DNA of 64,000 nt, from positions 1 to 64,000 of the IMG/VR virus record IMGVR_UViG_3300028602_000007, one strand, 5' to 3'. The notes under the pieces were generated by a model. It saw only the letters and a program-made list of their open reading frames with translations, did not search any database and was not told the DNA's origin. Below are positions 7,076 through 62,104 of this stretch, piece by piece; the first letter of the stretch is position 1; each line of letters starts with the position of its first letter. The position numbers and the translations under genes were made by a program. The DNA comes from a virus (lineage: Duplodnaviria; Caudoviricetes).

Positions 7076-8740
7076 ATGTTAAATGAAAAAGTATTTAAAT
7101 CTTATGAATCCTTTGTAAATGAAAGTTTTTTTTCTGATAAAATTTCGAAATATGGAAAGCGTGCAATTAACGCAATTAAAAAATTCATTGGGAAAGGTGC
7201 GAATTTTTTAAATTCACTAGTATTTCAATCAACTAATCAAGTCTCAAAAGATGGAAAAGCTGGAACAATTCCAATTGGTGTACATATTTTTCCATCTAAA
7301 AATGATATTGCTGCTCTTGCGGAAAAGGGAATTACTGCAAAAATTCCAAATGCAGTAGAAATTTATAAAAATGAGAAAACTAATGTTAACGAAGAAGTTG
7401 TTCCATTAGAGTCAGATCCTGATTCTAATGTTCCAAATATACATGAAGAAGATCTTAATGAACTTATTTCGGATGCATTAAATGATCCAGATGGATTACC
7501 GTTGATGATTTGGGGAGCTCCAGGTATTGCAAAAACAGCAATTGTTCAAAGATCACAAACTGCATATGGCGGTAGATTAATTGATTTACAATTAACAACA
7601 TATGCTCCAGAAGATTTCTTTTTACCAAAAGAAGATTCAGATTCATTTAGAAAAGAAAATAAATTTTCAGCTAGAGCAACTCGTATTCCTCAAGCGTGGT
7701 TACCAGTATATCATGAAAGCGAAGGAGAAGAAGGTGATGCTATTGCAAACGGAATAGACGGAGAAGGCGGAGTTCTTTTCTTAGATGAATTGTCTAGAGC
7801 AAGAGAAGCAATTCGAAATGTGTGTTTAAAACTTGTACATGAGAAAAAAATGGATGGCGGTTGGGTTTTAGGAAGCAAATGGAGAATAATAGCAGCTTCA
7901 AACAGAATCATGGACGACCCAGATACAAATGCTTCTGAATTCGGAACTGCATTATCTAATCGTTTCCAAAATTATAATTTTGTTCCAACAATAGATGATC
8001 TTACTAAATTTATGACGTCGCAAGGCGAGTTAATTGATAGTAAAATTATTGGATTTTTAAATTGGTCTAAAGGTGAAGAATATTTTCATAAACTAGATCC
8101 AGATAAAGGAATGATTGCTTGGCCGAGCCCACGAACTTGGGTCGAAGGTGCTAAACGTTGGAAACGTAAAGAAGATAGAATAAACCGAAAATTAACAAAA
8201 AAAGAAATATATTTAATAATGGCTGGTCATGTTGGAACCGAAGCAGCTGATGCATTTATTAAATATATTACATTATCTGAAAAAATTGATTTAGAAAAAT
8301 TAGCTAAAGTATATACAGATCCAGAAAACGCACCACTTCCGCCAACTAGAGATGTTGGGGGAGAAGATTTAATTGAACAAGACATTGCATATATTATGGC
8401 AATCGCGATTGCATATGAACACAGATATAGTAGGCTATCTCAAGAACAATTAAAAAATATTATAATATATACAGCTAGAGTAAATAATGCAACAACCGCA
8501 ACCCAAATATTAGCAGCTGTTTCTAAAGTACACCCATATATTAAAGCTGACCCAGCAAAGTCATCAGACAGTATGGTTGATGTTTATAAGAAATTTTTAG
8601 TTCAATATTTTTTACCAAAATATCCTAGTCAAAAAGCAGCAATTGATAAAATATTAAAAGATTCGCAAACTTCATCTCAAGAACAGCAGCCTCAAAATTA
8701 TGAAATTTCGAATTCAGATTCTGAAACAAATGATGATTAA
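7076..8740 (+). CDS. MoxR-like AAA+ ATPase
   Basis: Walker A WGAPGIAKT, Walker B LFLDE, sensor AASN, ALSNRF, PSPRTW. Confidence 0.88.
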   Translation: MLNEKVFKSYESFVNESFFSDKISKYGKRAINAIKKFIGKGANFLNSLVFQSTNQVSKDGKAGTIPIGVHIFPSKNDIAALAEKGITAKIPNAVEIYKNEKTNVNEEVVPLESDPDSNVPNIHEEDLNELISDALNDPDGLPLMIWGAPGIAKTAIVQRSQTAYGGRLIDLQLTTYAPEDFFLPKEDSDSFRKENKFSARATRIPQAWLPVYHESEGEEGDAIANGIDGEGGVLFLDELSRAREAIRNVCLKLVHEKKMDGGWVLGSKWRIIAASNRIMDDPDTNASEFGTALSNRFQNYNFVPTIDDLTKFMTSQGELIDSKIIGFLNWSKGEEYFHKLDPDKGMIAWPSPRTWVEGAKRWKRKEDRINRKLTKKEIYLIMAGHVGTEAADAFIKYITLSEKIDLEKLAKVYTDPENAPLPPTRDVGGEDLIEQDIAYIMAIAIAYEHRYSRLSQEQLKNIIIYTARVNNATTATQILAAVSKVHPYIKADPAKSSDSMVDVYKKFLVQYFLPKYPSQKAAIDKILKDSQTSSQEQQPQNYEISNSDSETNDD

Positions 8741-8742
8741 AT

Positions 8743-10377
8743 ATGGATATAATTAATTTTAATGAATTTGTTAAATATTCTAAATTTGTAAATTCACAAA
8801 TAATAACAAATAAAATTTATGAAAGTTCTAATCCAAATGAACCAAATGATGCTACTAAAAAGAAAATAGCTAGAACTAAGGTTGAATATGCTGGACAAGT
8901 ATTGCCAACTAAATTTCCATTTTTTGCAGAAATTTTATTTAATCAGCAAATCATATATACATATGATTCACGAATACCAACAGCAGCAACTGATGGACAC
9001 AGAATTTTTATTAATCCTAATTTTTTCTATCCAATGTCAACTCGACAGGTTTTATTTGTTTTAGCACATGAAGTTATGCATACTGCATTATTACATACAG
9101 TTCGTCAATATTCTAGAGATCATAATCGCTGGAATATTGCAGCAGACCATGAAATTAATTTACTATTAGCCTATGATAAAATATTATCAATCGAGGAGAT
9201 AACTAATGAGTTACATGGATATGCTAACCCCGAATATAAAGGACAAACTGCTGAAGAAATTTATAATGATCCAGATTTACAGGTTGGAAATAAACCAAGC
9301 AGTGGAGAACCTGAATCAGATGGAAACTCTATGCCTGAAGACGAAGTTCCTAGTAATGGAGAATCAGGATCAGGAGGAGACCCAGCGCCAGGAGGAGAAT
9401 CTGAAAATGGAGAATCAGGATCAGGAGGAGACCCAGCACCAGGAAGAGAATCTGAAAATGGAGAACCAGGATCAGGAGGAGACCCAGCACCAGGCGGAGA
9501 ATCTGAGTCAGACAGACCTTCTGATATTGATAAAGAAACTAATGATTCTGAACATCCAATAACTGAAATTAGAGGACCTAAAACTGGTGAAGTAATAACT
9601 AGAGAAGAAGGTGATGCGATCGCTAGACGTGAAGGTATTGATGTAGATGGAGATTCGAGTTTACCTGCAAAAAATGAAGATTTACTTAAGCGAGAAATTA
9701 GAGAAGCAGCACAACGACATTTAACTAATAGATCATCTACTGCAGGACGAGGAAATAACGGTAGTCTTTACCAAAGAATAATGCAATTGACTGAACCAAA
9801 AATAAATTGGAAACAAGTCTTGTCTAAATATATTGGAAAACTTGCATCTTCTAGTGAATTCAAAATGCCAAATAGAAGATTTGTATCTCGTGGAGAATAT
9901 AGACACGGATTAGTTGATGAATTTTCTATGTTAGAAAGAGCTGCTATTGTATTTGATGTTAGTGGATCAATTGCAAATGAGTTTCCTATAATTGCAGCAG
10001 AAGTCACAGGAATTGTTAAATCAAAAAAAGTAAAACGAATACATATTGTTCCATTCGCAGATAGTGTAGTTACTCCATTTGAAATTAAGGGATCAAAGAA
10101 ACCAACTCCTGAAGATTTTGCAAAAGTTGCAACAGGAGGTGGAACTTCCGGTTTTAATGCAGTTGTTGATTATATTAATGAAAAAACTAGAAAAAATCCA
10201 GACTTTGTAGTTATTATAACAGATGGGTACTTATATGGAGATTTTCCACCAAAGATTACTCCAAAATGGAGCAAAAAAGTAATTTGGCTAATTTTTGATA
10301 ATCCAAATTTTAATCCTGGAAATAATTGGGGTAAAGTTATACATGCAAATCAAGATAATGGATTTTATAACAAATAA
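8743..10377 (+). CDS. putative metallopeptidase (HExxH) + vWA domain protein (DUF2201-like)
   Basis: TAATDG, HEVMH, WNIAADHEIN, acidic linker, DVSGS MIDAS, GGGT, ITDG. Confidence 0.85.
   Translation: MDIINFNEFVKYSKFVNSQIITNKIYESSNPNEPNDATKKKIARTKVEYAGQVLPTKFPFFAEILFNQQIIYTYDSRIPTAATDGHRIFINPNFFYPMSTRQVLFVLAHEVMHTALLHTVRQYSRDHNRWNIAADHEINLLLAYDKILSIEEITNELHGYANPEYKGQTAEEIYNDPDLQVGNKPSSGEPESDGNSMPEDEVPSNGESGSGGDPAPGGESENGESGSGGDPAPGRESENGEPGSGGDPAPGGESESDRPSDIDKETNDSEHPITEIRGPKTGEVITREEGDAIARREGIDVDGDSSLPAKNEDLLKREIREAAQRHLTNRSSTAGRGNNGSLYQRIMQLTEPKINWKQVLSKYIGKLASSSEFKMPNRRFVSRGEYRHGLVDEFSMLERAAIVFDVSGSIANEFPIIAAEVTGIVKSKKVKRIHIVPFADSVVTPFEIKGSKKPTPEDFAKVATGGGTSGFNAVVDYINEKTRKNPDFVVIITDGYLYGDFPPKITPKWSKKVIWLIFDNPNFNPGNNWGKVIHANQDNGFYNK
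9355..9507 (+). repeat. three 51-bp tandem repeats (NGESGSGGDPAPGGESE)
   Basis: Near-identical units start at 9355, 9406 and 9457. Confidence 0.95.
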
Positions 10378-10382
10378 ATTAT

Positions 10383-10409
10383 AAACCATAAAGCTTTTAT
10401 ATAGTATAA
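10383..10409 (+). promoter_or_regulatory. putative early/middle promoter AAACC-N14-TAGTATAA
   Basis: Motif recurs upstream of non-structural genes (about 1448, 2353, 14918, 31366, 53699). Confidence 0.5.
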
Positions 10410-10428
10410 ATTATTAAAAATAGTTTAT

Positions 10429-12156
10429 ATGTCAAATACTCTTCATTTGGAATTTGATCAATTCATTAAAAATAATCATCCAAATTTAATATTTCGTCCA
10501 CAGCAAAAAGAAGTAATATTAGATATGATTGATGCATATTTTGAAAATCCAAATGGAATATATTTATTAGATGCACCAACTGGAAGCGGTAAAAGTTTAA
10601 TTGCGATGATGTTTTCCGACTTCTTAGTACATAAGAAAAATAAAGGATATATTTTAGCCTCAGATTTAGTTTTACATCAACAATATGTTAATGATTTTAG
10701 AAGAATGAAACTATGGAATTGGGGTGATGTAAAAGGAATTGATAATTATTTATGTATAGTTAATAATGAACCATTTTCAATAGGAGATTGCAAAAATAAG
10801 GGAATTTCATATAAAGAAGCTGAACAACTATCATGTTTTAAACAATGTAAATATTTAATGAGTAGACGTAAAGCAATACGTTCACCGATCTCATTACTTA
10901 CTTATCCATATGCATTAATTCAAAGAAATTTTGTTGAAAATAAACAAGATATTCCACCTTTTCCAAAAAGAGATTTTGTTGTATGTGATGAAGCTCATAA
11001 ATTATTAGATATTGTGCAAAGCCATTTTAGTCCAATTGTATCACATGATATTTATAAAAAAATTGATAAATTATTAGATACTTTATTTGAAATTGGAGTA
11101 TCTGTGCCAAAGATAAGTTCAGTTAGATTAGAAAAAGCAATTCATAAAATCGATAAAGAAAATAATAACAAAATACTATTAGAACAATTAAAAATAGTAA
11201 CAAAAGAATTATCTAAATTGATAAGCATAGTTGGAGATCTAAGAGAACAAGCAAGCGATTACTTCATAGATGAAAAAGTACCAAAAGACTGGATCATTGC
11301 TTTTAATTTATATGATTGGTGCAAAGATGTTCATTGTAAATTAGAAGATTATTGCGAAATTATAGATAAAGTCGGCATACAAAAAATGGTAAAAAATCCA
11401 AATGATAAAAATATCATTTTTAATTGCATTGATGAATATTATTTATTAGATAAGCATTTTTATAATAAATTTGGATTTAAATTGTTAATGACGGCTACGA
11501 TGGGAAAACCTGCAGATTTTATGAAAAACCACGGTATATCAAAAGCAAAATATTTTAAAATGAGTTCTCATTTTAATTGGGAAAAATCACCAATTATATA
11601 TTATCCTGGACGAAGATTATCTGAACGATTCATTGATGACAATTTTGATTGGAGTATTGAAAAACTATTAGATATATTAAGTATGCACACTGGTGAATCT
11701 GGAATAATTCATACTGCTTCATATGACAGAGCTAAAAAAATACACCAGGCTTTACCGAAAATGATTAAGAGTAAAGTATTATTATATAAAGGGTCAGAAG
11801 AAAAAACTAAGGTTTTAAAAAAAATGAAAAAGAAACCAGGTTTAATAATAATGGGACCTTCTTTATTAGAAGGATTAAACTTAATCGATGACTTGTCAAG
11901 ATTTCAAATATTTATGAAAGTTCCGTATCCTCATTTGGGAGATAAATATGTTGCTGCAAAATTACAGCATTCGCAAGACTGGTATAATTGGAAAACATCT
12001 GTTAATGTATTACAAGGAGTAGGCAGATCAATACGAAGCGAAACAGACTGGGCAATAACTTACTTATTAGATGGTGGATTTGGTGATTTATTTAGAAATG
12101 CAGGATCACAATTTCCAATTGAATTTAGAAATCGAATTCAAATAGAAAGAAAATAA
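10429..12156 (+). CDS. DinG/YoaA-like SF2 helicase
   Basis: Q motif RPQQ, APTGSGKS, Cys cluster, DEAH, QGVGRSIRSETD. Confidence 0.88.
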   Translation: MSNTLHLEFDQFIKNNHPNLIFRPQQKEVILDMIDAYFENPNGIYLLDAPTGSGKSLIAMMFSDFLVHKKNKGYILASDLVLHQQYVNDFRRMKLWNWGDVKGIDNYLCIVNNEPFSIGDCKNKGISYKEAEQLSCFKQCKYLMSRRKAIRSPISLLTYPYALIQRNFVENKQDIPPFPKRDFVVCDEAHKLLDIVQSHFSPIVSHDIYKKIDKLLDTLFEIGVSVPKISSVRLEKAIHKIDKENNNKILLEQLKIVTKELSKLISIVGDLREQASDYFIDEKVPKDWIIAFNLYDWCKDVHCKLEDYCEIIDKVGIQKMVKNPNDKNIIFNCIDEYYLLDKHFYNKFGFKLLMTATMGKPADFMKNHGISKAKYFKMSSHFNWEKSPIIYYPGRRLSERFIDDNFDWSIEKLLDILSMHTGESGIIHTASYDRAKKIHQALPKMIKSKVLLYKGSEEKTKVLKKMKKKPGLIIMGPSLLEGLNLIDDLSRFQIFMKVPYPHLGDKYVAAKLQHSQDWYNWKTSVNVLQGVGRSIRSETDWAITYLLDGGFGDLFRNAGSQFPIEFRNRIQIERK

Positions 12157-13436: not shown

Positions 13437-13718
13437 ATGGGAGATATGAGTTTAACAAGTATAGGTAAAGGTAAAGTATTATCATTTGATGAATTTATTA
13501 CATCTAGAGAAGGCGGATTAGAGGTTCCACAAACTGAAGAGCTACCAACTTCTACTGAGATTACAAATGAACCTGGAGATTTGAACATTGATTCTCCAGA
13601 AATAACAGATATACAAACAGATTCTAATGAAGAGCCTGAAAATTTTATTAATTCAGAAGAAAATTCAATAGAATCATTACCTCAAACAGAAGAAGAATCA
13701 GGCAATACAATTAATTAA
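13437..13718 (+). CDS. acidic putative internal head protein
   Basis: KVLSFDEFI motif, preceded by TATAAATA. Confidence 0.6.
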   Translation: MGDMSLTSIGKGKVLSFDEFITSREGGLEVPQTEELPTSTEITNEPGDLNIDSPEITDIQTDSNEEPENFINSEENSIESLPQTEEESGNTIN

Positions 13719-14365: not shown

Positions 14366-14777
14366 GAAAGTACTATTTATTGATGATAATGAACAAGATT
14401 TGTTTATGTATGGACAAATGATGAAGAGCTTAGGGTATGAAGTATTATTAATCAATTATTTGGAGTTTTCTATTGATAAGATTTTTAAATTTAATCCTAA
14501 TATTATTTTTTTAGATTTTTTTCTTGGTAATGATAAAACTGGAATCGATTTATTAAAAGAAATCAGAAAAGCAGGTTATCTTGGTAAAATTTGTATGCTA
14601 AGTGGTGAAGATAATAGTAAAATAATAGAAAGAAGCATACGTGCAGGAGCTGATGATTACCATGTTAAACCGATATATAGTAGTACTATTAATAATGTAA
14701 TTGAACGATCAACTGATTTTGTAAAAAAATCAGCAATTGAAAAAATTGCTGCAAATTTATATAATATTGTAATATAA
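14355..14777 (+). CDS. single-domain response regulator (REC)
   Basis: LFIDDN, phospho-acceptor FLD, MLSG, GADDYHVKP. Confidence 0.9.
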   Translation: MKNKKVLFIDDNEQDLFMYGQMMKSLGYEVLLINYLEFSIDKIFKFNPNIIFLDFFLGNDKTGIDLLKEIRKAGYLGKICMLSGEDNSKIIERSIRAGADDYHVKPIYSSTINNVIERSTDFVKKSAIEKIAANLYNIVI

Positions 14778-14908
14778 TGTCAAATAAAATAGTTGAAACT
14801 TTTAATCAATTTCTACAACAAGCTAGTTTAGCTCAAACTGGCAATCCTAAATTATTTGCAGAGAAATTAAAAACAAAGAAAAATCCACAAAAAATTAAAT
14901 CCAAGTAA
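14777..14908 (+). CDS. 43-aa basic peptide (not in ORF track)
   Basis: MSNKIVETFNQFLQQ..., coupled to the REC stop codon. Confidence 0.5.
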   Translation: MSNKIVETFNQFLQQASLAQTGNPKLFAEKLKTKKNPQKIKSK

Positions 14909-16172: not shown

Positions 16173-16175
16173 ATT

Positions 16176-19827: not shown

Positions 19828-20241
19828 ATGGGAAAATTTGGAAAATATGATATTCCTAAATTTTTAGTTAATACTCAAACCCGCGAAGTAGACGAAGATA
19901 CTGATTTACAAAGTGAACAGCCTACACATACTCAACCAAGTTCACATAAAATTTCAAGTTTTTCAGAATTTGCACAAGAATCAGATTCTATTAATGAAGA
20001 AGATATGATAATTGATTCAGATTTAGAAAATGAACCATGTGAAGATTGTGATAATTCTGACACCTTATCAGAAAAAGCAAAAGAAACTATTAAGAATATG
20101 TGTAACTCAGTATTAATACACGAGGCACACCTCTACGAGTCGTCAGAGGATCCTAACCAAACATATGAAACTTTTCTAAGGGAAGCTACTCATTATATGG
20201 CAGAATGTTTAATTAGAGCTGCTCAAAATTTAAAAGTATAA
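19828..20241 (+). CDS. acidic hypothetical (putative head) protein
   Basis: Internal KISSFSEF motif, late promoter upstream. Confidence 0.65.
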   Translation: MGKFGKYDIPKFLVNTQTREVDEDTDLQSEQPTHTQPSSHKISSFSEFAQESDSINEEDMIIDSDLENEPCEDCDNSDTLSEKAKETIKNMCNSVLIHEAHLYESSEDPNQTYETFLREATHYMAECLIRAAQNLKV

Positions 20242-20990
20242 TGATTAAGTCAATTGGAATAATATCTGGCAAATTTAAACCTCCACATGCTGGTCATTTT
20301 CAAGCAATACAAAATATTAATAATGAAAATGATCAAGTACATGTGTTTATTTCACCAATTGAACAAAATGGAATTAATGCAAATACTGCAAAATCAATTT
20401 TACTTGAATATTTTAAATTACTATCTAATTCTAACTCTATACATTTACATATTTCAGAAGAGTCTCCTGTGAAATCAGCAATGTCATACATTGCAAAATT
20501 AGGAGATTCTAAAAATGCAAAAGATTTTATTGTTAATGTATATGCATTAACTGACGATATGCAAAGATTCGAAGCATTAAATAATTTTAAAGGAAATTTA
20601 CGTAAAATTAATAAGATTGAAACTGGCCGAATAAATGGAATTTCTAGTACACAATTAAGAAATGCAATAGAAAATAATGATATTGATAAATTTAAAGAAG
20701 GTATACCGAGTGGAATTGATTATAAAAAAGTTTGGAAATTATTAAAAGAAAATGGAGCATACACAATTCCAGCAGATTCTTTTAAAACACCAAAAAAATA
20801 CGATTTTAATGTACAGCCTTCTAAAATTAGTACAAACTTAGGTGGGATTCCAAATCATTGGACCAATTCAAATCCAATTTCTAGATGGGATTTTATGACA
20901 AACCCAGTCATAAATAATATTCGTGAAAATAATTCAATAGTATTGACATTTAATCAATTCTGTAATGAACAAATAAATAATAAAAAATAA
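20241..20990 (+). CDS. cytidylyltransferase-like (HxGH) nucleotidyltransferase
   Basis: GKFKPPHAGH and ISSTQLR motifs. Confidence 0.82.
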   Translation: MIKSIGIISGKFKPPHAGHFQAIQNINNENDQVHVFISPIEQNGINANTAKSILLEYFKLLSNSNSIHLHISEESPVKSAMSYIAKLGDSKNAKDFIVNVYALTDDMQRFEALNNFKGNLRKINKIETGRINGISSTQLRNAIENNDIDKFKEGIPSGIDYKKVWKLLKENGAYTIPADSFKTPKKYDFNVQPSKISTNLGGIPNHWTNSNPISRWDFMTNPVINNIRENNSIVLTFNQFCNEQINNKK

Positions 20991-20996: not shown

Positions 20997-21476
20997 ATGA
21001 ATAACGATAGAATATTAAATTTTGATGACTTTGAAAAAAAGAATATATTAACTGACCCTGAAAAAGTAGTTAAATCTGCTCAAACTCCAAAGCCTAAAAA
21101 AGAAAATTTTGTTGATCAAGTGAAACGAGCTGAATTAACTCAACCTGAAATAACTGAACCTGATTATACAAAGGTCGAAAAAGTTAATGAAGAAACTGAC
21201 GAAATGGCTAGGTTAAGAACAATAATTGCACAATTACAAGAAGAAATTCAAAAAGAAGAAAGTGAATTTCAAGAAAAAATTATTGCTAAAAAAAATGACT
21301 TGATTGAAAAACAAAAAGCATATAATACATTAGCAAATACAGAAAGAGAAAAAGAAGCAATTGCTGTAAAACAATCACAAAATATACAACAGCAAACAGT
21401 TCAACCACAAGTGACTCAACCAAATGTAGGAATGATGAATACTGTACAAGCAAGTGAATACCCAACATCAGTATAA
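20997..21476 (+). CDS. coiled-coil hypothetical protein
   Basis: N-terminal RILNFDDF, coiled coil. Confidence 0.65.
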   Translation: MNNDRILNFDDFEKKNILTDPEKVVKSAQTPKPKKENFVDQVKRAELTQPEITEPDYTKVEKVNEETDEMARLRTIIAQLQEEIQKEESEFQEKIIAKKNDLIEKQKAYNTLANTEREKEAIAVKQSQNIQQQTVQPQVTQPNVGMMNTVQASEYPTSV

Positions 21477-22649: not shown

Positions 22650-24338
22650 TTATAAATCGCCAGTTTCTCCCATTTCACTAGCAGTTTCTTTACCAGGAGA
22701 GCCTTGATCAACTAGATTTTCAGCAGGAGCCATTCCACCTGCAGGTTCTGGTAAAACAACCTCAGCGTCTTGAGCTTCACCAGAAGATCCTCCAGATTTA
22801 GCTAAATAGTCTTTATTTTTTCTAAGCAATTGATCGCTCATTTTTAAATATTCGGTCACTAAGAAATCAGATGAGAAATATGGCTTTCCGTAATCATTAG
22901 TAATTGCTTTAAGTGCATTAATTGCAGCGATTCGTTTATTAAGAAGATCTTGATTTTTAATTTCTTCAAATACATTATCGTCATACCATACAACGCCAAC
23001 TGCATTTTTGAATTTATCATCATTTCTTAATTCTTTAACATCTAAACACATTTGCAAATATAAAGGCTTTGTAATTAATTCTTTATACGCAGCACGAAGA
23101 CGATGAATAAATTTATTATATCTAATTTCTTCCCTAGATATTCCTTCTGATGTTAATGTAAAAATTCCACCACCTTCACTAAATCTAGAAGCTGGTATTT
23201 TAGAATCTTGTTTTAATTTTTCTGTAAAATATTTAAGAAGTTCAGAACCTGACAAATTCGGACCTGCATATTCTAAAGGTTCTATTTTTACTTGTTGTTG
23301 CTGATCATTTACTGGAACAACGTAATTTTTATAAAATAAAATATTAGGTTTTCCATCAACTTTTAATTCACCAGATTCTCCATCAAAATAAATATCTTCC
23401 TTTAGAGTATTAGTAAATTCTCGAACATCTTCTTGGCCCTTTTGCATAGATTTTGTTCCAATTGGAACTGTTGTAACTAATCTAATCGGAGCATGCATAG
23501 TATGCCAAATTACTTTAGAATGTTCAATAATTCTAAGCATATTAAATGAACGAACTAATCTTTCTGCGAAACTTACTCTCTTAGTTCGCATATGATTAGA
23601 ATATGATATGTAAATAATTTGAGAATCTGATAACTGCCTATTTTGTTTTGTTAATGGATCACGCTGAGTCCATTGTAAAATAAGTTTACCTTCTTCAGAT
23701 TGAGTTACTTCTGGGTATAAAGAAGCTGGATCTAATTCCTTAAATCCAATAATTTCTTTAGGATTAACGATGTCATCGTATATTATTTCGAAAGCTAAGT
23801 GCCCTTCGATTAACCATTGATAAAAATATTGCCAAGCAGATATACCTTGATCAAAACCCCATCTACTATAAATTTTAGTAAATGCTTTTTTATAAGATTG
23901 AGAAATTCTATCTTGATATTCTAGTCGATTTTTTCGGTTATCTCCTAAATATGACATTTCTCCAATTAAATCATTCACATAACAAAATCGATTATCCTCA
24001 TCATATACAATTACATCATCTGTAATTGTTTCTAAAATAAATTCAATTTCACCACTCGATGCAACATCTCTTAATCGTTCGCGCTTTGACACATAATCTA
24101 ACTGAAAAAATGCAATTGCTTTTGTTTTAAGAGATGATGTTGTATCTGACAAAGCTAAAGTAGCTTTCATTAAATTATCGCCTGCATATGATCCTCCACT
24201 TCCTAATTGACTTTCGATAAAACCAATTGCTTGTGAATTTTTAACAAGTAAGTCATCATATTTTAAACCATATCTACTTAAATTATTAAATCTTGATCGA
24301 ATGAACCTACCTGCATTACCTTCTAAAAATCCTGCCAT
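22650..24338 (-). CDS. portal protein (T4 gp20-like)
   Basis: 562 aa, W..EG, MLRIIEHSKVIW..MHAP.R, YF..KL...SKIP.SR, ISREEIRYNKFI.RLR. Confidence 0.88.
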   Translation of the reverse strand: MAGFLEGNAGRFIRSRFNNLSRYGLKYDDLLVKNSQAIGFIESQLGSGGSYAGDNLMKATLALSDTTSSLKTKAIAFFQLDYVSKRERLRDVASSGEIEFILETITDDVIVYDEDNRFCYVNDLIGEMSYLGDNRKNRLEYQDRISQSYKKAFTKIYSRWGFDQGISAWQYFYQWLIEGHLAFEIIYDDIVNPKEIIGFKELDPASLYPEVTQSEEGKLILQWTQRDPLTKQNRQLSDSQIIYISYSNHMRTKRVSFAERLVRSFNMLRIIEHSKVIWHTMHAPIRLVTTVPIGTKSMQKGQEDVREFTNTLKEDIYFDGESGELKVDGKPNILFYKNYVVPVNDQQQQVKIEPLEYAGPNLSGSELLKYFTEKLKQDSKIPASRFSEGGGIFTLTSEGISREEIRYNKFIHRLRAAYKELITKPLYLQMCLDVKELRNDDKFKNAVGVVWYDDNVFEEIKNQDLLNKRIAAINALKAITNDYGKPYFSSDFLVTEYLKMSDQLLRKNKDYLAKSGGSSGEAQDAEVVLPEPAGGMAPAENLVDQGSPGKETASEMGETGDL

Positions 24339-41197: not shown

Positions 41198-42811
41198 ATG
41201 TTTAATGTAAAACGGATAAATCAATTAGAAAAAATTCTACTAGAATCGAATTTAATAAAAACAAATCAACAATTTGTTGCGATAAATCAAGATTATCAAA
41301 AAGCAAATAATGATAATGATAAATCAAATATATATCAAAGATTAGATTATTTAATTGATATGATGATTGATCAACAAATTATTAATTTTGAAAAAGATCT
41401 TGAACAACCAATTGGTGAACGTGAATTTGGCTCTGATTATGGAACTAAATTAATTATCGAATATTTAAAATATTGTAAAACTAGATTAATTAAACTAAGT
41501 GAATTAATTAATGTTGAACTTAAAAAAAGTAGCATTAATACTGAAAAATTAAAAAGTTTATCAATTGATAGAATTAAAATAGCTGCTAGAATCGAAGCAT
41601 TAGATCAAATATATACAGCATTTAAAAAAATTAATGATCAAGATTTACATGAACGAGCAGAATCAGTCTTATCTGAAATTATACGAATCAAATCTGAAAT
41701 GACGAATGCATATGCTAAATCAATTGAAGAGATTGGACTTGCGATTAAAGAACCATTAATTTTAATAAAAAAACAAGATAAACAAAAAGAACAAAAAAAA
41801 GAGTATGCAGGTTCAATATTAACTAAATTAAATGGATTAGATACAATTATTCAATTTTATCCAGCTGATGATAAAAAACAAGCTGAGCAAGCTGAGAATA
41901 CAATAGAAGGAACTATTATAAATGAAATTGGAAATGAAGATTTTGAGAAAATAAAAAAAGAAATTTTAAATAGTGAAGAAGAACTTGTAATATTAAGAAG
42001 AATTTTAAGATTAAAGTACATGCATTTTGGAAGTGAAGAAGATCTATTTAAAGAAGTAGATCAAATAAAAGTTTCGATAAATGGACTTGAAGGAACTCGA
42101 AATAGAATGCCAATTTCTAAACCTGCAGCAATCACGTATTTGCGAAAAGTATTACAAGATGAAGTTTCTAAAATTTTAGCTAATATGAGAGCTAAAAACA
42201 TAACAACTAAAGAAACTAAAGGAATTCATTATGATTTTAATATTAAATTACCATTATATACAAAAGTTGCATTGTCAGTTAATGGAAAACAAATTGCAGA
42301 TAATTCAAAAATTATGAAATTTAGAAAAAGGTTTCAATCTATAATGGATTTAATACCGGCTGGATCAATCGAAACTACTCCAGCTGGAGAAGCTTGGGCA
42401 AATTTTGGACAACAAACACATTTAGCATACGCAAAAGTATTGAATAAAGCAGGTAGAGTTATAGGAAAAATGGTTGGTGGAAGAGAAGGGGAAATGAAAG
42501 GAGATGCTATAACTAGATTACTTATACCTAGTACAGATGTACTAAATAATGATAAATTAAGATCAAATGAAACAATTAATGAAGAAGGAAGTCCTGTAGC
42601 CGGTGGATCTACTCCAGGGACAGCATATCAAGTTCCCAGTAGTATTGGATCGCAAGGGGCAATACAACCACCAACTGAAAATACAATTGGATCTGGAGAT
42701 AAATTTCAGCCAGGAATACCTAAGAAAAAAACTAAAAAGAAAAAGAAAAAGAAAAAGACAGTATATGAAAAAAGGTTAACTGTTATGAATTTTTCAACAT
42801 TTTCAAAATAA
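41198..42811 (+). CDS. hypothetical protein with poly-Lys tail
   Basis: 537 aa helical, KKKTKKKKKKKK near the C-terminus. Confidence 0.7.
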   Translation: MFNVKRINQLEKILLESNLIKTNQQFVAINQDYQKANNDNDKSNIYQRLDYLIDMMIDQQIINFEKDLEQPIGEREFGSDYGTKLIIEYLKYCKTRLIKLSELINVELKKSSINTEKLKSLSIDRIKIAARIEALDQIYTAFKKINDQDLHERAESVLSEIIRIKSEMTNAYAKSIEEIGLAIKEPLILIKKQDKQKEQKKEYAGSILTKLNGLDTIIQFYPADDKKQAEQAENTIEGTIINEIGNEDFEKIKKEILNSEEELVILRRILRLKYMHFGSEEDLFKEVDQIKVSINGLEGTRNRMPISKPAAITYLRKVLQDEVSKILANMRAKNITTKETKGIHYDFNIKLPLYTKVALSVNGKQIADNSKIMKFRKRFQSIMDLIPAGSIETTPAGEAWANFGQQTHLAYAKVLNKAGRVIGKMVGGREGEMKGDAITRLLIPSTDVLNNDKLRSNETINEEGSPVAGGSTPGTAYQVPSSIGSQGAIQPPTENTIGSGDKFQPGIPKKKTKKKKKKKKTVYEKRLTVMNFSTFSK

Positions 42812-42820: not shown

Positions 42821-43534
42821 ATGAATTTTAAAATACAAGATCGAGTTATTATAAAAAGTAAAGACCAAGAAGAAGAAAATATGAAAATATTTCAAAAATT
42901 ACAAGGTATTCCCGGTATAATAACTGATATTTATTATAATGATTATGCGCCAGAAACGCAAAGATATGAAGTTACAATAAAAAAACCAATAATAACAGAA
43001 GACGGAATTGAGCTCACAGTAATTGATGGGTTATATAATGAAAATTTATTAATGGCAAATAATCCAGATAAAATATCTGAAAATAATCATGCAATTACTT
43101 CATTTTTGGTATATGAATCTATAGAAAACGGTTCATGGTATTATGGATTAGTTGATTGTCATGGAATTATTTCATTTATTAAAGAGCCTGATGAATCAGA
43201 TGAATGGAGCGATGTTGATCAATTATTCGATATAGGGCTAATTGATATAGATTCTAGCGATTCTCCTGAAAAAAAAGAATATAATAAAAAGGTTAATATG
43301 ATGAGCATGACAGCTCGAGCAAATCAACAACGATATACTCTTGTATATCGAGCAAAAGTTTCACCAGAAACAGCTACCGATATTAGTTTATTATTAAAAA
43401 AAGGAAACGAGGAAGAAGCATTAAATATATTAAAAAATGAAGCAATCGAAGTTCAGCTTGCAAAAAATGGTGGAATTAATTTAGAAAAAGCATGGGATAA
43501 AATCCCAAATCCAATGCTCGATCCTATGTATTAA
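42821..43534 (+). CDS. hypothetical protein
   Basis: 237-aa ORF. Confidence 0.7.
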   Translation: MNFKIQDRVIIKSKDQEEENMKIFQKLQGIPGIITDIYYNDYAPETQRYEVTIKKPIITEDGIELTVIDGLYNENLLMANNPDKISENNHAITSFLVYESIENGSWYYGLVDCHGIISFIKEPDESDEWSDVDQLFDIGLIDIDSSDSPEKKEYNKKVNMMSMTARANQQRYTLVYRAKVSPETATDISLLLKKGNEEEALNILKNEAIEVQLAKNGGINLEKAWDKIPNPMLDPMY

Positions 43535-54691: not shown

Positions 54692-56689
54692 TTGACTAAT
54701 ACTGCGACATTACTTAATAGTAAAACAAAGCTTTCTCCTAATGAAGTTTTAATTTTAGAGAAAGTAAATTCGCCATTAACATATTCAGAAGATAGTAGCG
54801 GCGATATTATAATGGAAGGAACTTGTGCGGTATTCGGTAAAATGAATGATAATAACCGAGTATATGAAAAACAAGAATACCTACCACATTTATCATATCT
54901 TTCTGAAAAAATCAAAAAAGGCCAATTATTTGGTGAATTAGACCATCCTCAAAGTTTTGATGTTTCCTTAAAAAACGTATCTCATGTAGTAGAATCATTA
55001 ACATATGATGAACCGAGTAATAGTGTAAAAATAAGATTACGGATACTAAATACTCCAAGTGGAAGAATTGCAAAAACTCTTATTAAAGCAGGTGCAACTA
55101 TTTCAAGTTCATCAAGGGCAGCTGGACAAGTTTTAGAGAATGGAACTGTTAAACTACATAAGATTTTTACTTATGATTTAGTAGCAGAGCCTGGATTTAA
55201 TGAAGCTGCTCTATCTAAAGTTGCTGAAAGTTTACAAGGTAATTATAGCATGATATTAGAATCATTAGATACACTTCAATCTACTTCGATTACTAACAAG
55301 TTAGTTGACATTTCTGAAAATTTAAATTTTTCAGATTCTGTGAAAATTTTTAAAATAAATAATTCTGATATTAATAAGACTTCACAAAATAATGAAAATA
55401 TAATGGCTAATGACTATGTAACTAGAGAGGAAATGAATCAATATTCTGAAGTTGTTAAGAAAAGATTTTCTCAATTAAAAGAAAGTATTTCTAAAAATAA
55501 TGATGATTTGTTAACACTTTCGGAAAACAGTACAGATAATAATCCTATTACAGAAAAACTTATAGAATTTACGAATTACCTAGCAGGCGAAATGCAACAA
55601 ATTATTGAATTTACAGATTATTTGTCAACTATGATGAATAAAGGAATTGGATATACTGAACACGTTGCTGAAAAAGTTAATAATGTAATTGATTATTCTG
55701 ATTATTTAGCAGGAATGACAAGTAAAAATATTGATTTTTCTAATTACTTAGGAGAAAAACTTAATCAAGGATTAAATTATACTGAGTATGTTGGAAATAT
55801 GACAGAAAAAAGTATTTTATTTGGAAATTACTTAGCTGAAAACATTAATAAAGGAATTGCATATACTGAATATATTGGGGAACAGACATCAAAAGGACTT
55901 AATTTCTCTAATTACTTAGCTGAAAATATTAATAATGCTATTAAGTATTCTGAATATCTAGGTAGCAATATCAAAAAAGGAATTGCATATACTGAATATA
56001 TCGCAGAAACGATGAATCAAAATGTTGGATCAACAGCTTCTGCTAAAACACGAAGACTATTGTCTGATGTTACTGCGTTAAATGAAAATAAAGAAATTGC
56101 AATAAACGAAAATTCATCAATTGATAATATTGTAGCAGCAGTAGATGGAATAATCGAAAACATTTCATCGAATTCAGCAAAATCTGTTTTAGAAAATAAA
56201 TACCCATTCTTAAAATTCTTAACTGAATCTAATAAGAAAAAGTTTTATTCATTAGATAAAGATATGCAAAAAGCAATTGTTGAAACTCTTAGTGGAGCAG
56301 TATATTTCAATGAAGAACAAGTAATTAGTTTAATGGAAGCAGTAATCAATAAAGAACAGGAAAATATTCCTAACTATATTAGATTTATGCCACCTACATA
56401 TAAAGAAATTTATGAAAATATGGATAATTCTGAAAAAAATATGATTGCTGCACAAGCATCAGTAGTAACAGTAAATACTCCATATCAAGTAAAAGCTTTT
56501 TGGGATTCAAGAGATTTACGTGCAATAAATGAAAGAATTGCAAGAAATGAAGAAATAAATAAAAATCAAAATACAGCAGTTAACGAAAGCCGAAGTAAAG
56601 AAGGATTAGTGTCGTTAGAGTCTGTATACGAAAGTATGCGTGGATATTCAAATGCATACTTAGAAGCTCTCAAAAGAAGAGCGTATTAA
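54692..56689 (+). CDS. prohead protease (gp21-like) fused to scaffold-like domain
   Basis: N.NNRVY, GELDHP, ILNTPSG, SSRAAG, YDLVAEPG; C-terminal 14-aa repeats; directly upstream of the major capsid gene. Confidence 0.88.
   Translation: MTNTATLLNSKTKLSPNEVLILEKVNSPLTYSEDSSGDIIMEGTCAVFGKMNDNNRVYEKQEYLPHLSYLSEKIKKGQLFGELDHPQSFDVSLKNVSHVVESLTYDEPSNSVKIRLRILNTPSGRIAKTLIKAGATISSSSRAAGQVLENGTVKLHKIFTYDLVAEPGFNEAALSKVAESLQGNYSMILESLDTLQSTSITNKLVDISENLNFSDSVKIFKINNSDINKTSQNNENIMANDYVTREEMNQYSEVVKKRFSQLKESISKNNDDLLTLSENSTDNNPITEKLIEFTNYLAGEMQQIIEFTDYLSTMMNKGIGYTEHVAEKVNNVIDYSDYLAGMTSKNIDFSNYLGEKLNQGLNYTEYVGNMTEKSILFGNYLAENINKGIAYTEYIGEQTSKGLNFSNYLAENINNAIKYSEYLGSNIKKGIAYTEYIAETMNQNVGSTASAKTRRLLSDVTALNENKEIAINENSSIDNIVAAVDGIIENISSNSAKSVLENKYPFLKFLTESNKKKFYSLDKDMQKAIVETLSGAVYFNEEQVISLMEAVINKEQENIPNYIRFMPPTYKEIYENMDNSEKNMIAAQASVVTVNTPYQVKAFWDSRDLRAINERIARNEEINKNQNTAVNESRSKEGLVSLESVYESMRGYSNAYLEALKRRAY
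55562..56015 (+). repeat. about 11 degenerate 14-aa (42-bp) repeats in the scaffold region
   Basis: Units of the type I.Y/F(T/S).YLAE.INKG. Confidence 0.75.
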
Positions 56690-56706: not shown

Positions 56707-58413
56707 ATGGCAACATCAAAAATTTTCAAAAAGTTAAACGATCAGCATGTAATTGATACGTGGATGCCTATTTTGGAAAGCTATGGAGCAAGCAAAGAGA
56801 CTTTAAATGCTAGACCTTGGTTAGTTGACATAGCACATTATCATGCAATTTTTGATAATGCAGGCGCAGTTAACGAATCAACTGCACCTGGTTTATTTTA
56901 TCAACAACCTGGTTCAGTTAGCAATATGGGTTCAATTAGTGCACCAACTAGCTCAATGACTCCTTTTTCAGCATTCGGTGCTGGAACCGCAGCTAAAGCA
57001 AGTTATGCAAGTTCTGGATCTGGTGATAAATTCCCGAGTTTACTTCCTGTAGCTATTCAAGTTGCAGCTAAAACTATTGGTTTTGATATGGTTGGTGTAG
57101 TTCCTATGGACGCACCGGTTGGTTTCTTACCATATTTAGATTATGTATACCAAGGTGGTAATACTGATCAAGAATACAATCCATTCGTAGTAAAAATTAA
57201 TGGAGTTAAAGGTTCAACTGTTCTTACTACAGGAGGAACATTCTCTCAATTAATTAGTGGTGACACTGCTACTATTACAGTTGGTGGTGATGTATTAACA
57301 TTATCTTTTATTGGTTTCTCAAGAGTTGACGGAACTGGTATGTGGAAAGTTATTAGTGATTCATCAACTAGCGGAGAAAAATCATTAGCTGATTATATTA
57401 CAACTGGTAGTGTTTTCACAACGGCAACAATTGCAGGAGCTGCATTAGTTAAAACTTATACACTTCTAGCAGCAAATACTCCATCATTAGTATCTGCATT
57501 AGAAAACCATATTTCTGGATTCACAACTTCATCTGATGCAAATTATGCAACTGATGCATGGGACGGACCATATCTTGGAACAACTGATTCTCAAATCGAA
57601 GGAATGAAGAGAGAAACAGCAGAAGTTTCTAAATTCCGTCAAATGGGTTTAAAAATGTTCACTAAGTTCGTTGAAGCTAAGGGCGACCAAGTATCTGTCT
57701 CAGCAACAGTTGAGCAGATCCAAGATCTTAATAGAGTTTGGAACTTTGACGTTATTTCTATGTTAGAAAATGTTGCAGTTAACGAAGTGGCACAATCAAT
57801 TAACAAAAAACTTGTTGATAGATGCTTTGCACTCGGAGCAATACATAAAACTAACATTGATGCAATCGAAGGTAGTGGAATTACTACATTGGATTTAACA
57901 GTTGGTTCTGGATTCGAAAATGTTTCTACTCTACAACGTAGAGTTGTTACTAAGATCTTAGAAATGGCTAACTTGATTTATCACAGAGGTCGTTTTGGAG
58001 CAGGTACGCATATCGTTACTAACGGTAGAGTAGCATCAGCTCTAGCAGACGTATCTGGATATTCAATCGCACCATTTAATAATGATCTTCCATCAGGACC
58101 TGGACAATTATATCCAGCTGGTAAAGTTCACGGTTTAACAATTTATGTTGATCCTAACCTCAAATTTGGTGATAATAGAATTCATATTGGACGTAAAGGC
58201 GCAGATGAAGAACCAGGTATTAAATTCTTACCTTATATCATGGCAGAATCTCTACAAACTATTTCCGAAGGTACATTCTCACCAAAAATTGGTTTAAAAT
58301 CACGTTATGCTATTACTGAAGCAGGATGGCACCCAGAAACTCAGTACATCACAATGACTGTTAATGGTCTTGGAGTACTTACTGGATCGGTTGCTCCTTC
58401 TACTGCGTATTAA
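56707..58413 (+). CDS. major capsid protein (gp23-like)
   Basis: W.PILE, VGVVPM..P.G, EQIQDL, E....IN, PYI, PKIGLKSRYA. Confidence 0.9.
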   Translation: MATSKIFKKLNDQHVIDTWMPILESYGASKETLNARPWLVDIAHYHAIFDNAGAVNESTAPGLFYQQPGSVSNMGSISAPTSSMTPFSAFGAGTAAKASYASSGSGDKFPSLLPVAIQVAAKTIGFDMVGVVPMDAPVGFLPYLDYVYQGGNTDQEYNPFVVKINGVKGSTVLTTGGTFSQLISGDTATITVGGDVLTLSFIGFSRVDGTGMWKVISDSSTSGEKSLADYITTGSVFTTATIAGAALVKTYTLLAANTPSLVSALENHISGFTTSSDANYATDAWDGPYLGTTDSQIEGMKRETAEVSKFRQMGLKMFTKFVEAKGDQVSVSATVEQIQDLNRVWNFDVISMLENVAVNEVAQSINKKLVDRCFALGAIHKTNIDAIEGSGITTLDLTVGSGFENVSTLQRRVVTKILEMANLIYHRGRFGAGTHIVTNGRVASALADVSGYSIAPFNNDLPSGPGQLYPAGKVHGLTIYVDPNLKFGDNRIHIGRKGADEEPGIKFLPYIMAESLQTISEGTFSPKIGLKSRYAITEAGWHPETQYITMTVNGLGVLTGSVAPSTAY

Positions 58414-58437
58414 TATCTAACAAAATCTTAATTGATA

Positions 58438-58467
58438 TAAACTCCTAATTTATTAGGAGTTTTTTTT
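58438..58467 (+). terminator. terminator after major capsid gene
   Basis: AAACTCCTAAT-TT-ATTAGGAGTTT followed by a T-run. Confidence 0.85.
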
Positions 58468-58519
58468 GTATAATTAAGATATATAAAAATAAACCAATTT
58501 TAAGAGAAATCATAGCACT

Positions 58520-60214: not shown

Positions 60215-60269
60215 AAACTTCCCTAATAAATAAAGATAGTTATTAATATTAAAAAAAAAGTAAATAAAC

Positions 60270-60692
60270 ATGGGTAAAAATGTTGTTATGTCATATGATG
60301 AATTTCTATTAGAAAAGAAAACTAATCAAGAACTAAGTAATTCTACTCCAAGCGGAAGTAAAATTTCTAATTCAGTAAATGACAATATGGCTAAACTGCC
60401 AGAGAAAAAAGGATCTACTCCAAATAAACGAACAGATTCTAATATGGCTAAAATGCCAGAGAAAAAAGGAAGTATTCCTAAAAAAAGAGTAAATCAAGGT
60501 ACAACGACTTTGCCTACTAAAAAAGGATCTGCTCTAACTAAAGTAATTAATCAAAATACCGCAGATCTTCCAAAAGGAGGAAGTTCATTAAGTAAAACAG
60601 TTGATCCAAAAATGGCAAAAATGCTAATTGGCAAAGTTACTCCAAATGCAGCAGTTAATAAAGCATATACTGGAATGAAAAATAAAAAATAA
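60270..60692 (+). CDS. basic repetitive putative internal head protein
   Basis: VVMSYDEFLLE followed by MAK(L/M)PEKKGS repeats; late promoter upstream. Confidence 0.65.
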   Translation: MGKNVVMSYDEFLLEKKTNQELSNSTPSGSKISNSVNDNMAKLPEKKGSTPNKRTDSNMAKMPEKKGSIPKKRVNQGTTTLPTKKGSALTKVINQNTADLPKGGSSLSKTVDPKMAKMLIGKVTPNAAVNKAYTGMKNKK

Positions 60693-60698
60693 GATTAA

Positions 60699-61217
60699 AT
60701 GACAAATCAATCTATAAAAGCATATGCTACATTTGAATCATTTGAACAAGATATGAATTCAATTGATACAACTGGAACTGAAGTTGAACTAGATAGTCCA
60801 ATTGAAAATCTTTATCAAGAAAATGTAGAAAATTTGCCAGATACGATAGAAGATGCATATAGACAAGGATTAGAAGATATGCATAATTATATAGAAAATC
60901 GAGAATCTGAAATAATTGAAGAACCTGATCCAGAAGATCCATCCGGTCCCCCGGTTGTTAATGAAGAAAATTCATTAAAAGATTTGGTTGGAAAATCAGA
61001 TGATGAAGAATTAGATTTAGATGACGCTAGATCTATTGGAAAGAAAATTTCTAAAATGAAAGGAGACGATCGAAAAAAGTATGTAGGAATTGTTAATTTC
61101 ATGGGAGCATCTTGTCGAATATATAATGAAATTTGGGCAAATTATAAACCAGTTGATCCTTCTAAGAAAAAATCGAATAAAGGAAAAGAATTTAAAGGTA
61201 ATAAAGATAGATATTAA
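60699..61217 (+). CDS. hypothetical protein
   Basis: AYATFESF motif, acidic. Confidence 0.65.
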   Translation: MTNQSIKAYATFESFEQDMNSIDTTGTEVELDSPIENLYQENVENLPDTIEDAYRQGLEDMHNYIENRESEIIEEPDPEDPSGPPVVNEENSLKDLVGKSDDEELDLDDARSIGKKISKMKGDDRKKYVGIVNFMGASCRIYNEIWANYKPVDPSKKKSNKGKEFKGNKDRY

Positions 61218-61220
61218 ATA

Positions 61221-61628
61221 ATGAAAAAACTTATATTTGATTATAATAGTTTTGTAAATGAAATGTTTAGGTCTGATTTAAAACCTAGAATTAAAAAAGA
61301 TTTTATAGACCCTAATAAAGTTTATGATTATACTATCGGAAATGCAAAACTTGATCAATTAGTTTCAAATTATAATTTTAAACCAGAAAATCAAAGAATT
61401 AATATTTTACCTAATGATACTGTTCGATTTTATATAACTGAACCTGGTAAATTTACTCATATTAAAAATATAATAAAGAAAAAAATAAACGATGACATTA
61501 AAAAATATAAAATAGAAGATCCAAAAATCGAAATTTATTATAATGTCATTAATGGAATATCAGATAATCCAGAATTATCTCAAAAAGTTGAAATTGTTGG
61601 AGTATTAGCTGCAACTTTTATTGATTAA
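61221..61628 (+). CDS. hypothetical protein
   Basis: LIFDYNSFVNE motif. Confidence 0.65.
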   Translation: MKKLIFDYNSFVNEMFRSDLKPRIKKDFIDPNKVYDYTIGNAKLDQLVSNYNFKPENQRINILPNDTVRFYITEPGKFTHIKNIIKKKINDDIKKYKIEDPKIEIYYNVINGISDNPELSQKVEIVGVLAATFID

Positions 61629-61645
61629 TAAAATATAATAATATT

Positions 61646-62104
61646 ATGGAAAAAACAATTATTACTGATTATAATACTTTTATAAAAGAAAGATATAATC
61701 GTTCAATTAATGAAAGCTTTGAAGCTGACAATATTGAAAATGACAATACCGAAAACACAGAAGATCTTACAGATGATAATTTAAATAATGAAGAACAATC
61801 CGACTTTGATTATATTAGTAAAGAAGAATTAATCAAGAAAGCAGAAGAATCAGAAGAACCTATCATTATTGTAACAATTACCGAAGATGAGTTAGATGAA
61901 TTTATAAATGAAGTAGACGATGAAATAAAAGATCGTTTTGAAATATTTAAATTTGGCGAACCTACTGAAAATGAGGAAGAAGCTAAAACTGAAAATGATT
62001 TAATGGCTGATAATATTGAAGATAGTAACGAAGAGCTTGAATATTCAAAAACTATTCAAAGTCGATATGGTGCTAACGAATCTGATTTTAATAATGAAGA
62101 TTAA
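61646..62104 (+). CDS. acidic hypothetical protein
   Basis: IITDYNTFIKE...INES motif. Confidence 0.65.
   Translation: MEKTIITDYNTFIKERYNRSINESFEADNIENDNTENTEDLTDDNLNNEEQSDFDYISKEELIKKAEESEEPIIIVTITEDELDEFINEVDDEIKDRFEIFKFGEPTENEEEAKTENDLMADNIEDSNEELEYSKTIQSRYGANESDFNNED

Follow-up and report, generated by a model that had tools for sequence, protein, structure and literature searches.

The DNA analysed here (the window) covers the initial 64 kb of IMG/VR virus record IMGVR_UViG_3300028602_000007 (hereafter G000; 120,754 bp, CheckV completeness ~47%), with a GC content of ~26% and a tRNA cluster at its start. An earlier note on this DNA had pointed to a short peptide of the form [ILV]xx[FY]xx[FY], often followed by xxE, in about 15 unrelated proteins, had likened it to the capsid-targeting sequence (CTS) of phage T4, and had proposed its carriers as injected cargo. 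All 15 quoted peptides are present in the open reading frames (ORFs) named for them. Here we call the peptide a tag, strict where it fits [FY]xx[FY][ILVMCA]xE and partial where the aromatic pair is present without a correctly spaced aliphatic-x-Glu (phi-x-E). The genes that carry it are listed below with the motif, its amino acid (aa) positions and, for some, the isoelectric point (pI) of the product.

7076..8740, plus strand: MoxR-like AAA+ ATPase (Pfam AAA_5, bpMoxR); strict tag VFKSYESFVNE, aa 6-16 (nt 7091-7123)
8743..10377, plus strand: metallopeptidase (DUF2201_N) plus vWA-like protein (Pfam), in one operon with 7076; partial tag IINFNEFV, aa 3-10, no Glu at +6
10429..12156, plus strand: DNA helicase (phrog_2488, 7.8e-104); partial tag LEFDQFIK, aa 7-14
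13437..13718, plus strand: very acidic 93-aa protein, pI 4.1; partial tag VLSFDEFI, aa 14-21
14777..14908, plus strand: putative gene, basic 43-aa ORF; partial tag IVETFNQFL, aa 5-13, Gln at the expected Glu position
19828..20241, plus strand: acidic 137-aa protein; internal strict motif ISSFSEFAQE, aa 42-51
20241..20990, plus strand: HIGH-motif nucleotidyltransferase (Pfam CTP_transf_like, 22.9 bits, just over the cut-off); C-terminal motif VLTFNQFCNE, aa 234-243 of 249
20997..21476, plus strand: 159-aa protein; partial tag ILNFDDF, aa 6-12
32027..32797, plus strand: acidic 256-aa protein; strict tag VLTFSKFILE, aa 5-14
36601..38520, plus strand: RNA-ligase/nucleotidyltransferase fusion (Pfam RNA_ligase 26-235; CTP_transf_like 439-534, below the cut-off at 19.1 bits vs 21); internal motif FPTFNEFVGE, aa 402-411, between the two domains
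41198..42811, plus strand: basic 537-aa protein; partial C-terminal motif VMNFSTF, aa 529-535
42821..43534, plus strand: 237-aa fusion protein; degenerate motif ITSFLVYE, aa 92-99, at the junction of its two modules
60270..62104, plus strand: four-gene operon downstream of the capsid gene, with an insert (58520-60214) between, made up of the next four genes
60270-60692, plus strand: basic 140-aa protein, pI 10.2; VMSYDEFLLE
60699-61217, plus strand: acidic protein; partial tag YATFESFE
61221-61628, plus strand: IFDYNSFVNE
61646-62104, plus strand: very acidic protein, pI 4.1; ITDYNTFIKE

We compared the window and the remainder of G000 with three relatives, G001 (39% GC), G002 (complete, 270 kb, 38% GC) and G005 (36% GC), and took as chance expectation the matches found after residues had been shuffled within each protein, with composition kept. 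The loose pattern of the earlier note occurs near chance overall (102 vs 85 +/- 8 expected) and is enriched within the first 30 aa (19 vs 8.8). Sharper patterns separate the tag from background more clearly, since in the window proteins the strict motif is found 5 times in the first 35 aa vs 0.52 expected (maximum 4 in 500 shuffles), and a relaxed [FY]xxF 12 times in the first 25 aa vs 2.4 expected (maximum 7). Because the motif was sharpened on G000 data, replication in the three other genomes is the stronger test. G002 has 15 strict N-terminal tags vs 0.93 expected, and the four genomes pooled give 49 vs 4.9 for the N-terminal strict motif, 9 vs 3.2 for the C-terminal one (last 30 aa) and 60 vs 30 for internal occurrences. 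Each genome of the clade has 11-19 strict N-terminal tags, plus many partial ones. The consensus of 52 tags from the four genomes is M-K-x-[ILV]-K-x-F-[TS]-Q-F-[ILV]-N-E, followed by Ser or Ala, with the first aromatic mostly at residues 6-8. Since the enrichment is present at 36-39% GC, AT-rich composition does not explain it. At synonymous sites of the tags, codon choice (TTT/TTC, GAA/GAG, all aliphatic codons) follows that of the genome, which shows selection on the peptide and not on DNA or RNA, and the carriers are, as had been claimed, mutually unrelated, with no similarity beyond the tag in BLASTP.

Among the 15 examples, strict N-terminal tags are carried by 7076, 32027, 60270, 61221 and 61646, and partial ones by 8743, 13437, 14777, 20997 and 60699; the latter would at best be targeting-only tags. 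The motif is internal in 19828, 36601 and 42821 and C-terminal in 20241 and 41198, and the motifs of 19828, 20241 and 36601 also contain aliphatic-x-Glu. That the peptide can sit at C-termini and junctions held up for 20241, 41198, 42821 and 19828, whose orthologues bear it out; for the ligase fusion 36601, conservation is uninformative.

The window also encodes head proteins of T4 type, along with chaperones.

54692..56689, plus strand: prohead protease-scaffold fusion, 665 aa; protease domain aa 19-165 (nt 54746-55186)
56707..58413, plus strand: major capsid protein (MCP), gp23 type (Pfam Gp23, 1.5e-41)
22650..24338, minus strand: portal protein, T4 gp20 type (Pfam Portal_T4, 4.5e-61)
53748-54620, plus strand: DnaJ (J domain and C-terminal domain), directly upstream of the protease-scaffold gene
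17131-19134, plus strand: ClpA/ClpB-like double AAA+ ATPase
G000 81160-81474 and 90622-92226, minus strand, outside the window: GroES- and GroEL-like genes, judged from their N-terminal sequences only

The first of these proteins bears most directly on the tag. Its protease domain matches Pfam Peptidase_S77 at 32-34 bits (27-bit cut-off), and S80 is also over its cut-off. A phmmer search of the domain against PDB sequences missed T4 gp21, which was recovered by a fold search (Foldseek) with the AlphaFold2 (AF2) model against gp21 structure 5JBL (E 5e-11, target template-modelling score 0.76-0.79, root-mean-square deviation 2.4-3.0 over 165 columns). His85, Ser140/141 and Asp162 are invariant in 23 relatives and are the putative catalytic residues. 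Behind the protease domain stand eleven tandem 14-aa repeats, K-G-I-x-[YF]-[ST]-[EN]-Y-[LIV]-[AG]-E-x-x-N, at exact spacing (aa 289-446, nt 55556-56029), with the consensus K-G-I-x-Y-S-[EN]-Y-[LIV]-A-E-N-L-N. Each repeat carries an aliphatic-Ala-Glu, as in GIAYTEYIAE, SILFGNYLAE and GLNFSNYLAE, and a helical C-terminal domain covers ~aa 500-630. Tandem Repeats Finder detected no DNA-level tandem repeat in the scaffold gene, and the repeat region matches no Pfam family. Nearly all of ~60 relatives have 11 or 12 repeats, and one gave a chain of 4. A search of a 1.8-billion-protein library returned 265 scaffold cluster representatives at E <= 1e-3, most of them 600-830 residues long, and the repeat span across related scaffolds (including P0121-P0270) is mostly 5-18 units, with a few scoring lower; repeat number might track capsid size. 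These related scaffolds include proteins of 460-735 kb uncultured phages; among such phages of 460-636 kb, two sampled 40-kb regions (LR756500, LR756504) have scaffold repeats and few N-terminal tags. A candidate maturation site of the MCP, [VIL]-[NF]-E, lies in its N-arm at aa 55-57 (AVNE is encoded by nt 56866-56877), and the Glu of this site is invariant in the 40 relatives' MCP N-termini shown, of 50 aligned, and cleavage may take place there. The position of DnaJ beside the protease-scaffold gene is conserved in relatives, and judging from these gene predictions the phage encodes its own chaperone set (DnaJ, ClpA/ClpB-like, GroES- and GroEL-like).

Tag and scaffold repeat share one pattern: an aromatic, a second aromatic three residues on, an aliphatic, any residue, and Glu. 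When a matrix was trained on the scaffold repeats alone, with the aromatics merged into a single class, matches in the first 30 aa numbered 7 vs 0.56 expected in G002, 5 vs 0.62 in G001, 7 vs 0.42 in G005 and 2 vs 0.23 in G000. The same matrix gave 4 matches in T4, and both of those in the first 30 residues were the CTSs of IPII and IPIII. The likeness thus appears to be real in physico-chemical terms, the two peptides being alike in pattern and not interchangeable or identical.

The earlier note had also placed most of the tagged genes in units headed by ATAAATA, and this is borne out. ATAAATA lies 24-46 nt upstream of 7076 (30 nt), 13437, 19828, 20997 (25 nt), 32027 (32 nt), 36601 and 60270 (45 nt), with TATAAATA 28 nt upstream of both 13437 and 19828, and other tagged genes sit in tight operons behind those so headed. 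Protease-scaffold, baseplate, tube, sheath and fibre genes likewise have it at this distance before their start codons. In each of the four genomes, ATAAATA is 3-6 times likelier upstream of tagged than of untagged ORFs; p ranges from 1e-4 to 7e-3 across all four with the relaxed tag, and the strict tag gives 0.03-0.05 in three of them and 0.15 in G005. ATAAATA is a promoter-like motif that tagged genes share with structural genes, and it may mark late expression.

The tag is usually retained in orthologues whose bodies share no more than 25-60% identity, and shuffling of domains behind tags is also seen; the carriers are for the most part strongly acidic, low-complexity proteins (pI 4.1-5.4). 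For the 7076 ATPase, no homologue was found in the five relatives G001-G005, and conservation was instead taken from a 5.8-billion-protein database, in which 29 of the 30 nearest homologues (at least 44% identity) have a strict tag at residues 6-15, as do a few more distant ones. Homologues from cultured N4-like phages match the ATPase core only and are missing the whole N-terminal extension. Other distant homologues (P0037-P0120, ~30-38% identity) share a different leader, MKKLV[SP]ESIxE[FT]...LNEG, which could be the tag of a different clade and have phi-x-E sites of its own. The 10429 helicase has FEEFIK in its G002 orthologue, and the helicases of more distant relatives are without this N-terminal extension. 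In 19828 the motif directly precedes a conserved C-terminal domain, and in the orthologues from G001, G002 and G005 the N-terminal part is variable and F[DEA][QND]F[LV]NE separates it from that domain. The C-terminal motif of the 20241 nucleotidyltransferase is kept as FDDFCKE in G001 and FSDYISD in G005, orthologues of 20997 retain LNFDDF or LKFDEF without phi-x-E, and orthologues of 32027 are tagged in G001 and G002 and partially so in G005. The motif of 36601 is kept in its G001 and G002 orthologues, which is uninformative at 45-60% identity, and this fusion, which rests on an internal motif, is the weakest enzyme case.

Two neighbouring genes show how the motif can be joined to other modules. 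The C-termini of 41198 orthologues read FSDFLKQ (G001) and FADFIKE (G002), and the C-terminus of 41198 itself (window 42611-42811) carries a copy of the capsid protein N-arm (GSGDKF and flanks); its residues 472-508 are 54% identical over 37 aa to residues 57-93 of a relative's MCP (E 7e-5). The copy is preceded by INE and is followed by a run of 12 Lys and then the partial tag. The halves of 42821 are separate genes in relatives, where the second half begins with a full tag, for example MPESRVLTFSSFLNE in L074; in G005 the two halves are again fused, and the motif at position 93 is FSSFLNE.

In relatives, the 60270 gene directly follows the capsid gene and always begins with a tag. The motif of 60699 directly precedes the conserved C-terminal part of the protein, an arrangement also seen at 63878-64573, just outside the window, across ~50 orthologues. 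None of the four genes of the operon matches a PHROG family. The insert at 58520-60214 (plus strand) is a 564-aa gene with DUF7487 and a GNAT acetyltransferase; most relatives do not have it there, and L046 has a 570-aa gene at the same place. Further along G000, a 5'-3' deoxyribonucleotidase (HAD; 80481-81182, minus strand) has the strict tag IMNFNEFINE, and its G001 and G002 orthologues are tagged, although head loading would not be expected of such an enzyme.

The phage is a member of the T4 superfamily and belongs to an uncultured clade with genomes of ~250-270 kb. Some 80 IMG/VR relatives share 57-84% capsid protein identity, several of them on 250-270 kb contigs. The closest capsid proteins of GenBank phages, 32-36% identical, come from uncultured 460-640 kb phages and Prevotella Lak megaphages. 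A megablast of 17 kb of the window gave no match among GenBank phages, and there is no close cultured relative. Elsewhere in the window, a TnpB/Cas12f-like OrfB_IS605 gene lies near a partial family-B DNA polymerase ORF (25581-26819 and 28095-29684, both minus strand); the first 111 residues of the polymerase-like ORF match only part of a family-B DNA polymerase, which may be split or interrupted. Within the tRNA cluster, 2396-4024 (plus strand) encodes a protein with weak sub-cut-off matches to TROVE and Ro60-vWA.

In T4 the CTS is MKTYQEFIAE, with a single cut after Glu (PMC8442874), and internal proteins tagged in this way are familiar from T4 and closely related phages (PMC9026906). Amber-suppressor mutagenesis assigned residues 4 and 7 mainly to targeting and residues 8 and 10 to processing, and Asp at position 10 blocked cutting while targeting was kept (PMC9026906). 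The resemblance proposed in the earlier note is close, as the four conserved positions of the motif correspond to the mapped T4 residues Y4, F7, I8 and E10. As a positive control, the same regular expressions run on the T4 genome recovered IPII and IPIII (MKTYQEFIAE) and IPI (MKTFKEFTST), together with ORF 61.1 and the gp23 maturation site FGSFLTE. T4 ORF 61.1, a hypothetical 54-aa protein (AF158101 18966-19130, minus strand), begins with MKTFKEFIKE, a near-perfect CTS. In both systems, a short N-terminal leader with aromatics three apart and then aliphatic-x-Glu is carried by unrelated proteins that differ between relatives, and it occurs beside a gp21-type protease and a gp23-type capsid protein. 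The systems differ in scale and arrangement, however. T4 has 3-4 N-terminal tags vs 11-19 strict ones per genome in this clade, and the first aromatic is at residue 4 in T4 but usually at 6-8 here. The carriers of this clade include large enzymes and are mostly acidic, in contrast to the basic internal proteins of T4, and C-termini and module junctions can bear tags as well. The clade's protease is fused to the scaffold, and the scaffold is an array of the tag-like pattern, while the T4 scaffold gp22 (104117-104926, plus strand) has a single AYINYVQRE that is loosely like the repeat found here.

Other systems offer partial parallels. T4 Alt is a head-packaged ADP-ribosyltransferase whose N- and C-terminal propeptides are cut by gp21 (PMC9026906), and as a head-loaded enzyme processed at both ends it is a precedent for the C-terminal motifs of 20241 and 41198. 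Alt (123454-125502, minus strand) has FASFV 36 residues from its C-terminus, but MELITELFDE, the leader at its N-terminus, falls outside the strict pattern. The phiKZ-like giant phages SPN3US, phiKZ and 201phi2-1 have long propeptides on head and ejection proteins, which their S80 protease cleaves at [AGS]-x-E (PMC5694885, PMC10052503). These are likewise large phages with many head proteins whose propeptides are removed by a protease, and the protease here also matches Pfam S80; their propeptides, however, are mostly >100 residues, with no short common tag and with small residues at P3, and no scaffold counterpart has been confirmed there (PMC5694885). For the MoxR AAA+/vWA-metallopeptidase pair of T4-like jumbo phages, Iyer et al. 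2021 (PMC7824862) proposed that it acts in virion assembly. These two genes also occur together here (7076 and 8743); the passages of that paper searched mention no N-terminal leader, whereas the ATPase here and 29 of its 30 nearest homologues have a CTS-like tag. An incomplete literature search found no paper on CTSs in metagenomic huge phages and none on a scaffold of CTS-like repeats. Encapsulin cargo-loading peptides and P22 scaffold-fusion cargo also show a short terminal peptide sending unrelated proteins into an HK97-fold shell, but with other peptides and partners and with a peptide that is not removed by a protease, and the parallel is one of analogy only. CTS-tagged proteins in T4 (PMC9026906) and long propeptides in phiKZ-like phages (PMC5694885) were thus already known, and what appears to be new here is a predicted protease fused to a scaffold of eleven tag-like 14-residue repeats.

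In the interpretation that we favor, and to which we give a probability of about 0.65, the motif serves as a T4-type peptide for capsid targeting and processing. The prohead would be built on a gp21-type serine protease fused to a long helical scaffold of eleven I-x-Y-S-E-Y-[LIV]-A-E repeats, and proteins with a single copy of the tag, for the most part at residues 4-16 but sometimes C-terminal or where two modules meet, would associate with this protease-scaffold core during shell assembly, the two aromatics providing the binding. The protease would later cut after the Glu of aliphatic-x-Glu in the tags, in every scaffold repeat and in the capsid N-arm, and the mature parts of the tagged proteins would stay in the head. 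Each protein could then be ejected into the host, be degraded as part of the core, or act as an assembly factor. Since the scaffold has eleven tag-like copies, the phage probably packs an unusually large set of proteins. Several observations weigh against this interpretation. The motif definitions were sharpened after the data had been seen, half of the window's N-terminal examples are without the Glu needed for processing, just 30-50% of tagged genes are headed by an ATAAATA of their own, and the deoxyribonucleotidase and the 10429 helicase look like early or metabolic enzymes. The AF2 model renders the repeat region as long helices at low confidence (predicted local distance difference test ~40-47). 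Finally, a full-alphabet matrix trained on the scaffold repeats does not retrieve the tags, because the repeats have Y or H, and the tags F, as their second aromatic; what is claimed for tag and repeat is therefore a shared pattern and not that they are one peptide.

Whether the tagged proteins are delivered to the host is a separate matter, and here 'head-targeted' is better supported than the 'injected cargo' of the earlier note, because the carriers are mostly acidic and because virion assembly was the role proposed for the MoxR/vWA pair (PMC7824862). The tag might well bring proteins to the prohead without most of its carriers being cargo for the host; these could instead be assembly factors or auxiliaries of the core or scaffold that are lost at maturation, by degradation or expulsion, or that act only in assembly, and we give this serious weight while leaning the other way. 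In T4, basic proteins are injected, whereas gp67 and gp68 of the core are acidic (PMC9026906), and the acidic, low-complexity carriers here could equally be prohead-core components degraded like gp67 and gp68. The retention of DnaJ directly beside the protease-scaffold gene also points this way. The tagged nucleotidyltransferase, deoxyribonucleotidase and helicase, however, have no obvious role in assembly, the repertoire varies between relatives as that of T-even internal proteins does, and the basic 60270 protein resembles a DNA-associated internal protein.

It is unlikely, in our view, that the motif is only an extended prohead-protease site (P7 to P1), with head entry, should it occur, depending on other parts of each protein. 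The T4 gp23 site FGSFLTE does fit the pattern, every scaffold repeat ends in aliphatic-Ala-Glu, and the motif is 2-fold enriched internally, but in T4 the aromatic positions 4 and 7 set targeting and not processing (PMC9026906), this phage's own capsid maturation site is without the aromatic pair, and 8743, 13437, 20997 and their orthologues keep that pair without Glu, which suits binding and not cleavage. Still less probable is a tag read by chaperones (DnaJ with host DnaK, the ClpB-like AAA+ protein, GroEL/GroES) or by a degradation or localisation system. DnaK-binding peptides generally consist of a short hydrophobic core with Lys/Arg flanks; the tag has this shape, and genes for DnaJ, a ClpA/ClpB-like ATPase, GroEL and GroES are present in the phage. 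Nothing links these chaperones to the pattern, however, which fits the T4 CTS at all four mapped positions as well as the scaffold repeats, and chaperone binding would leave the invariant Glu unexplained. That the motif is a by-product of composition, of a nucleotide signal at start codons or of common descent of the carriers seems to us extremely improbable, even though a 26% GC genome is rich in F, Y, I, N and K and the loose motif is near chance overall, for composition-keeping shuffles give 10-fold fewer N-terminal matches and the enrichment recurs in the GC-richer relatives. Composition artefact, nucleotide-level signal and shared carrier ancestry were rejected by the shuffles, by free variation at synonymous sites and by the BLASTP dissimilarity of the carriers beyond the tag, respectively.

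Returning to the targeting interpretation, a more specific form of it, possible but rather doubtful at present, is that the tag is a single free copy of the scaffold's self-association repeat, so that cargo would mimic the scaffold and be freed once the fused protease had cut both at their shared phi-x-E. If true, this would explain what the T4 CTS binds, a point not settled in the T4 reviews consulted, and it would mean that ~15-50 different proteins are loaded per virion, among them enzymes including AAA+, peptidase, nucleotidyltransferase, nucleotidase and helicase proteins, with repeat number perhaps scaling with head size. The proteins that T4 delivers from its head include anti-restriction and host-takeover proteins, and to our knowledge only a few phages have a defined set of head-carried proteins that are delivered with the DNA. 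The T4 CTS has already been used to load foreign proteins into capsids (PMC8442874, PMC10229621), and natural tag variants with their scaffold partners would widen this capsid-loading toolbox. A recognisable tag would let candidate head-loaded proteins be read from sequence in uncultured large phages. In this clade it points to a candidate repertoire several times larger than that of T4, and a scaffold whose repeats share that pattern is a concrete candidate for the partner that the tag binds.

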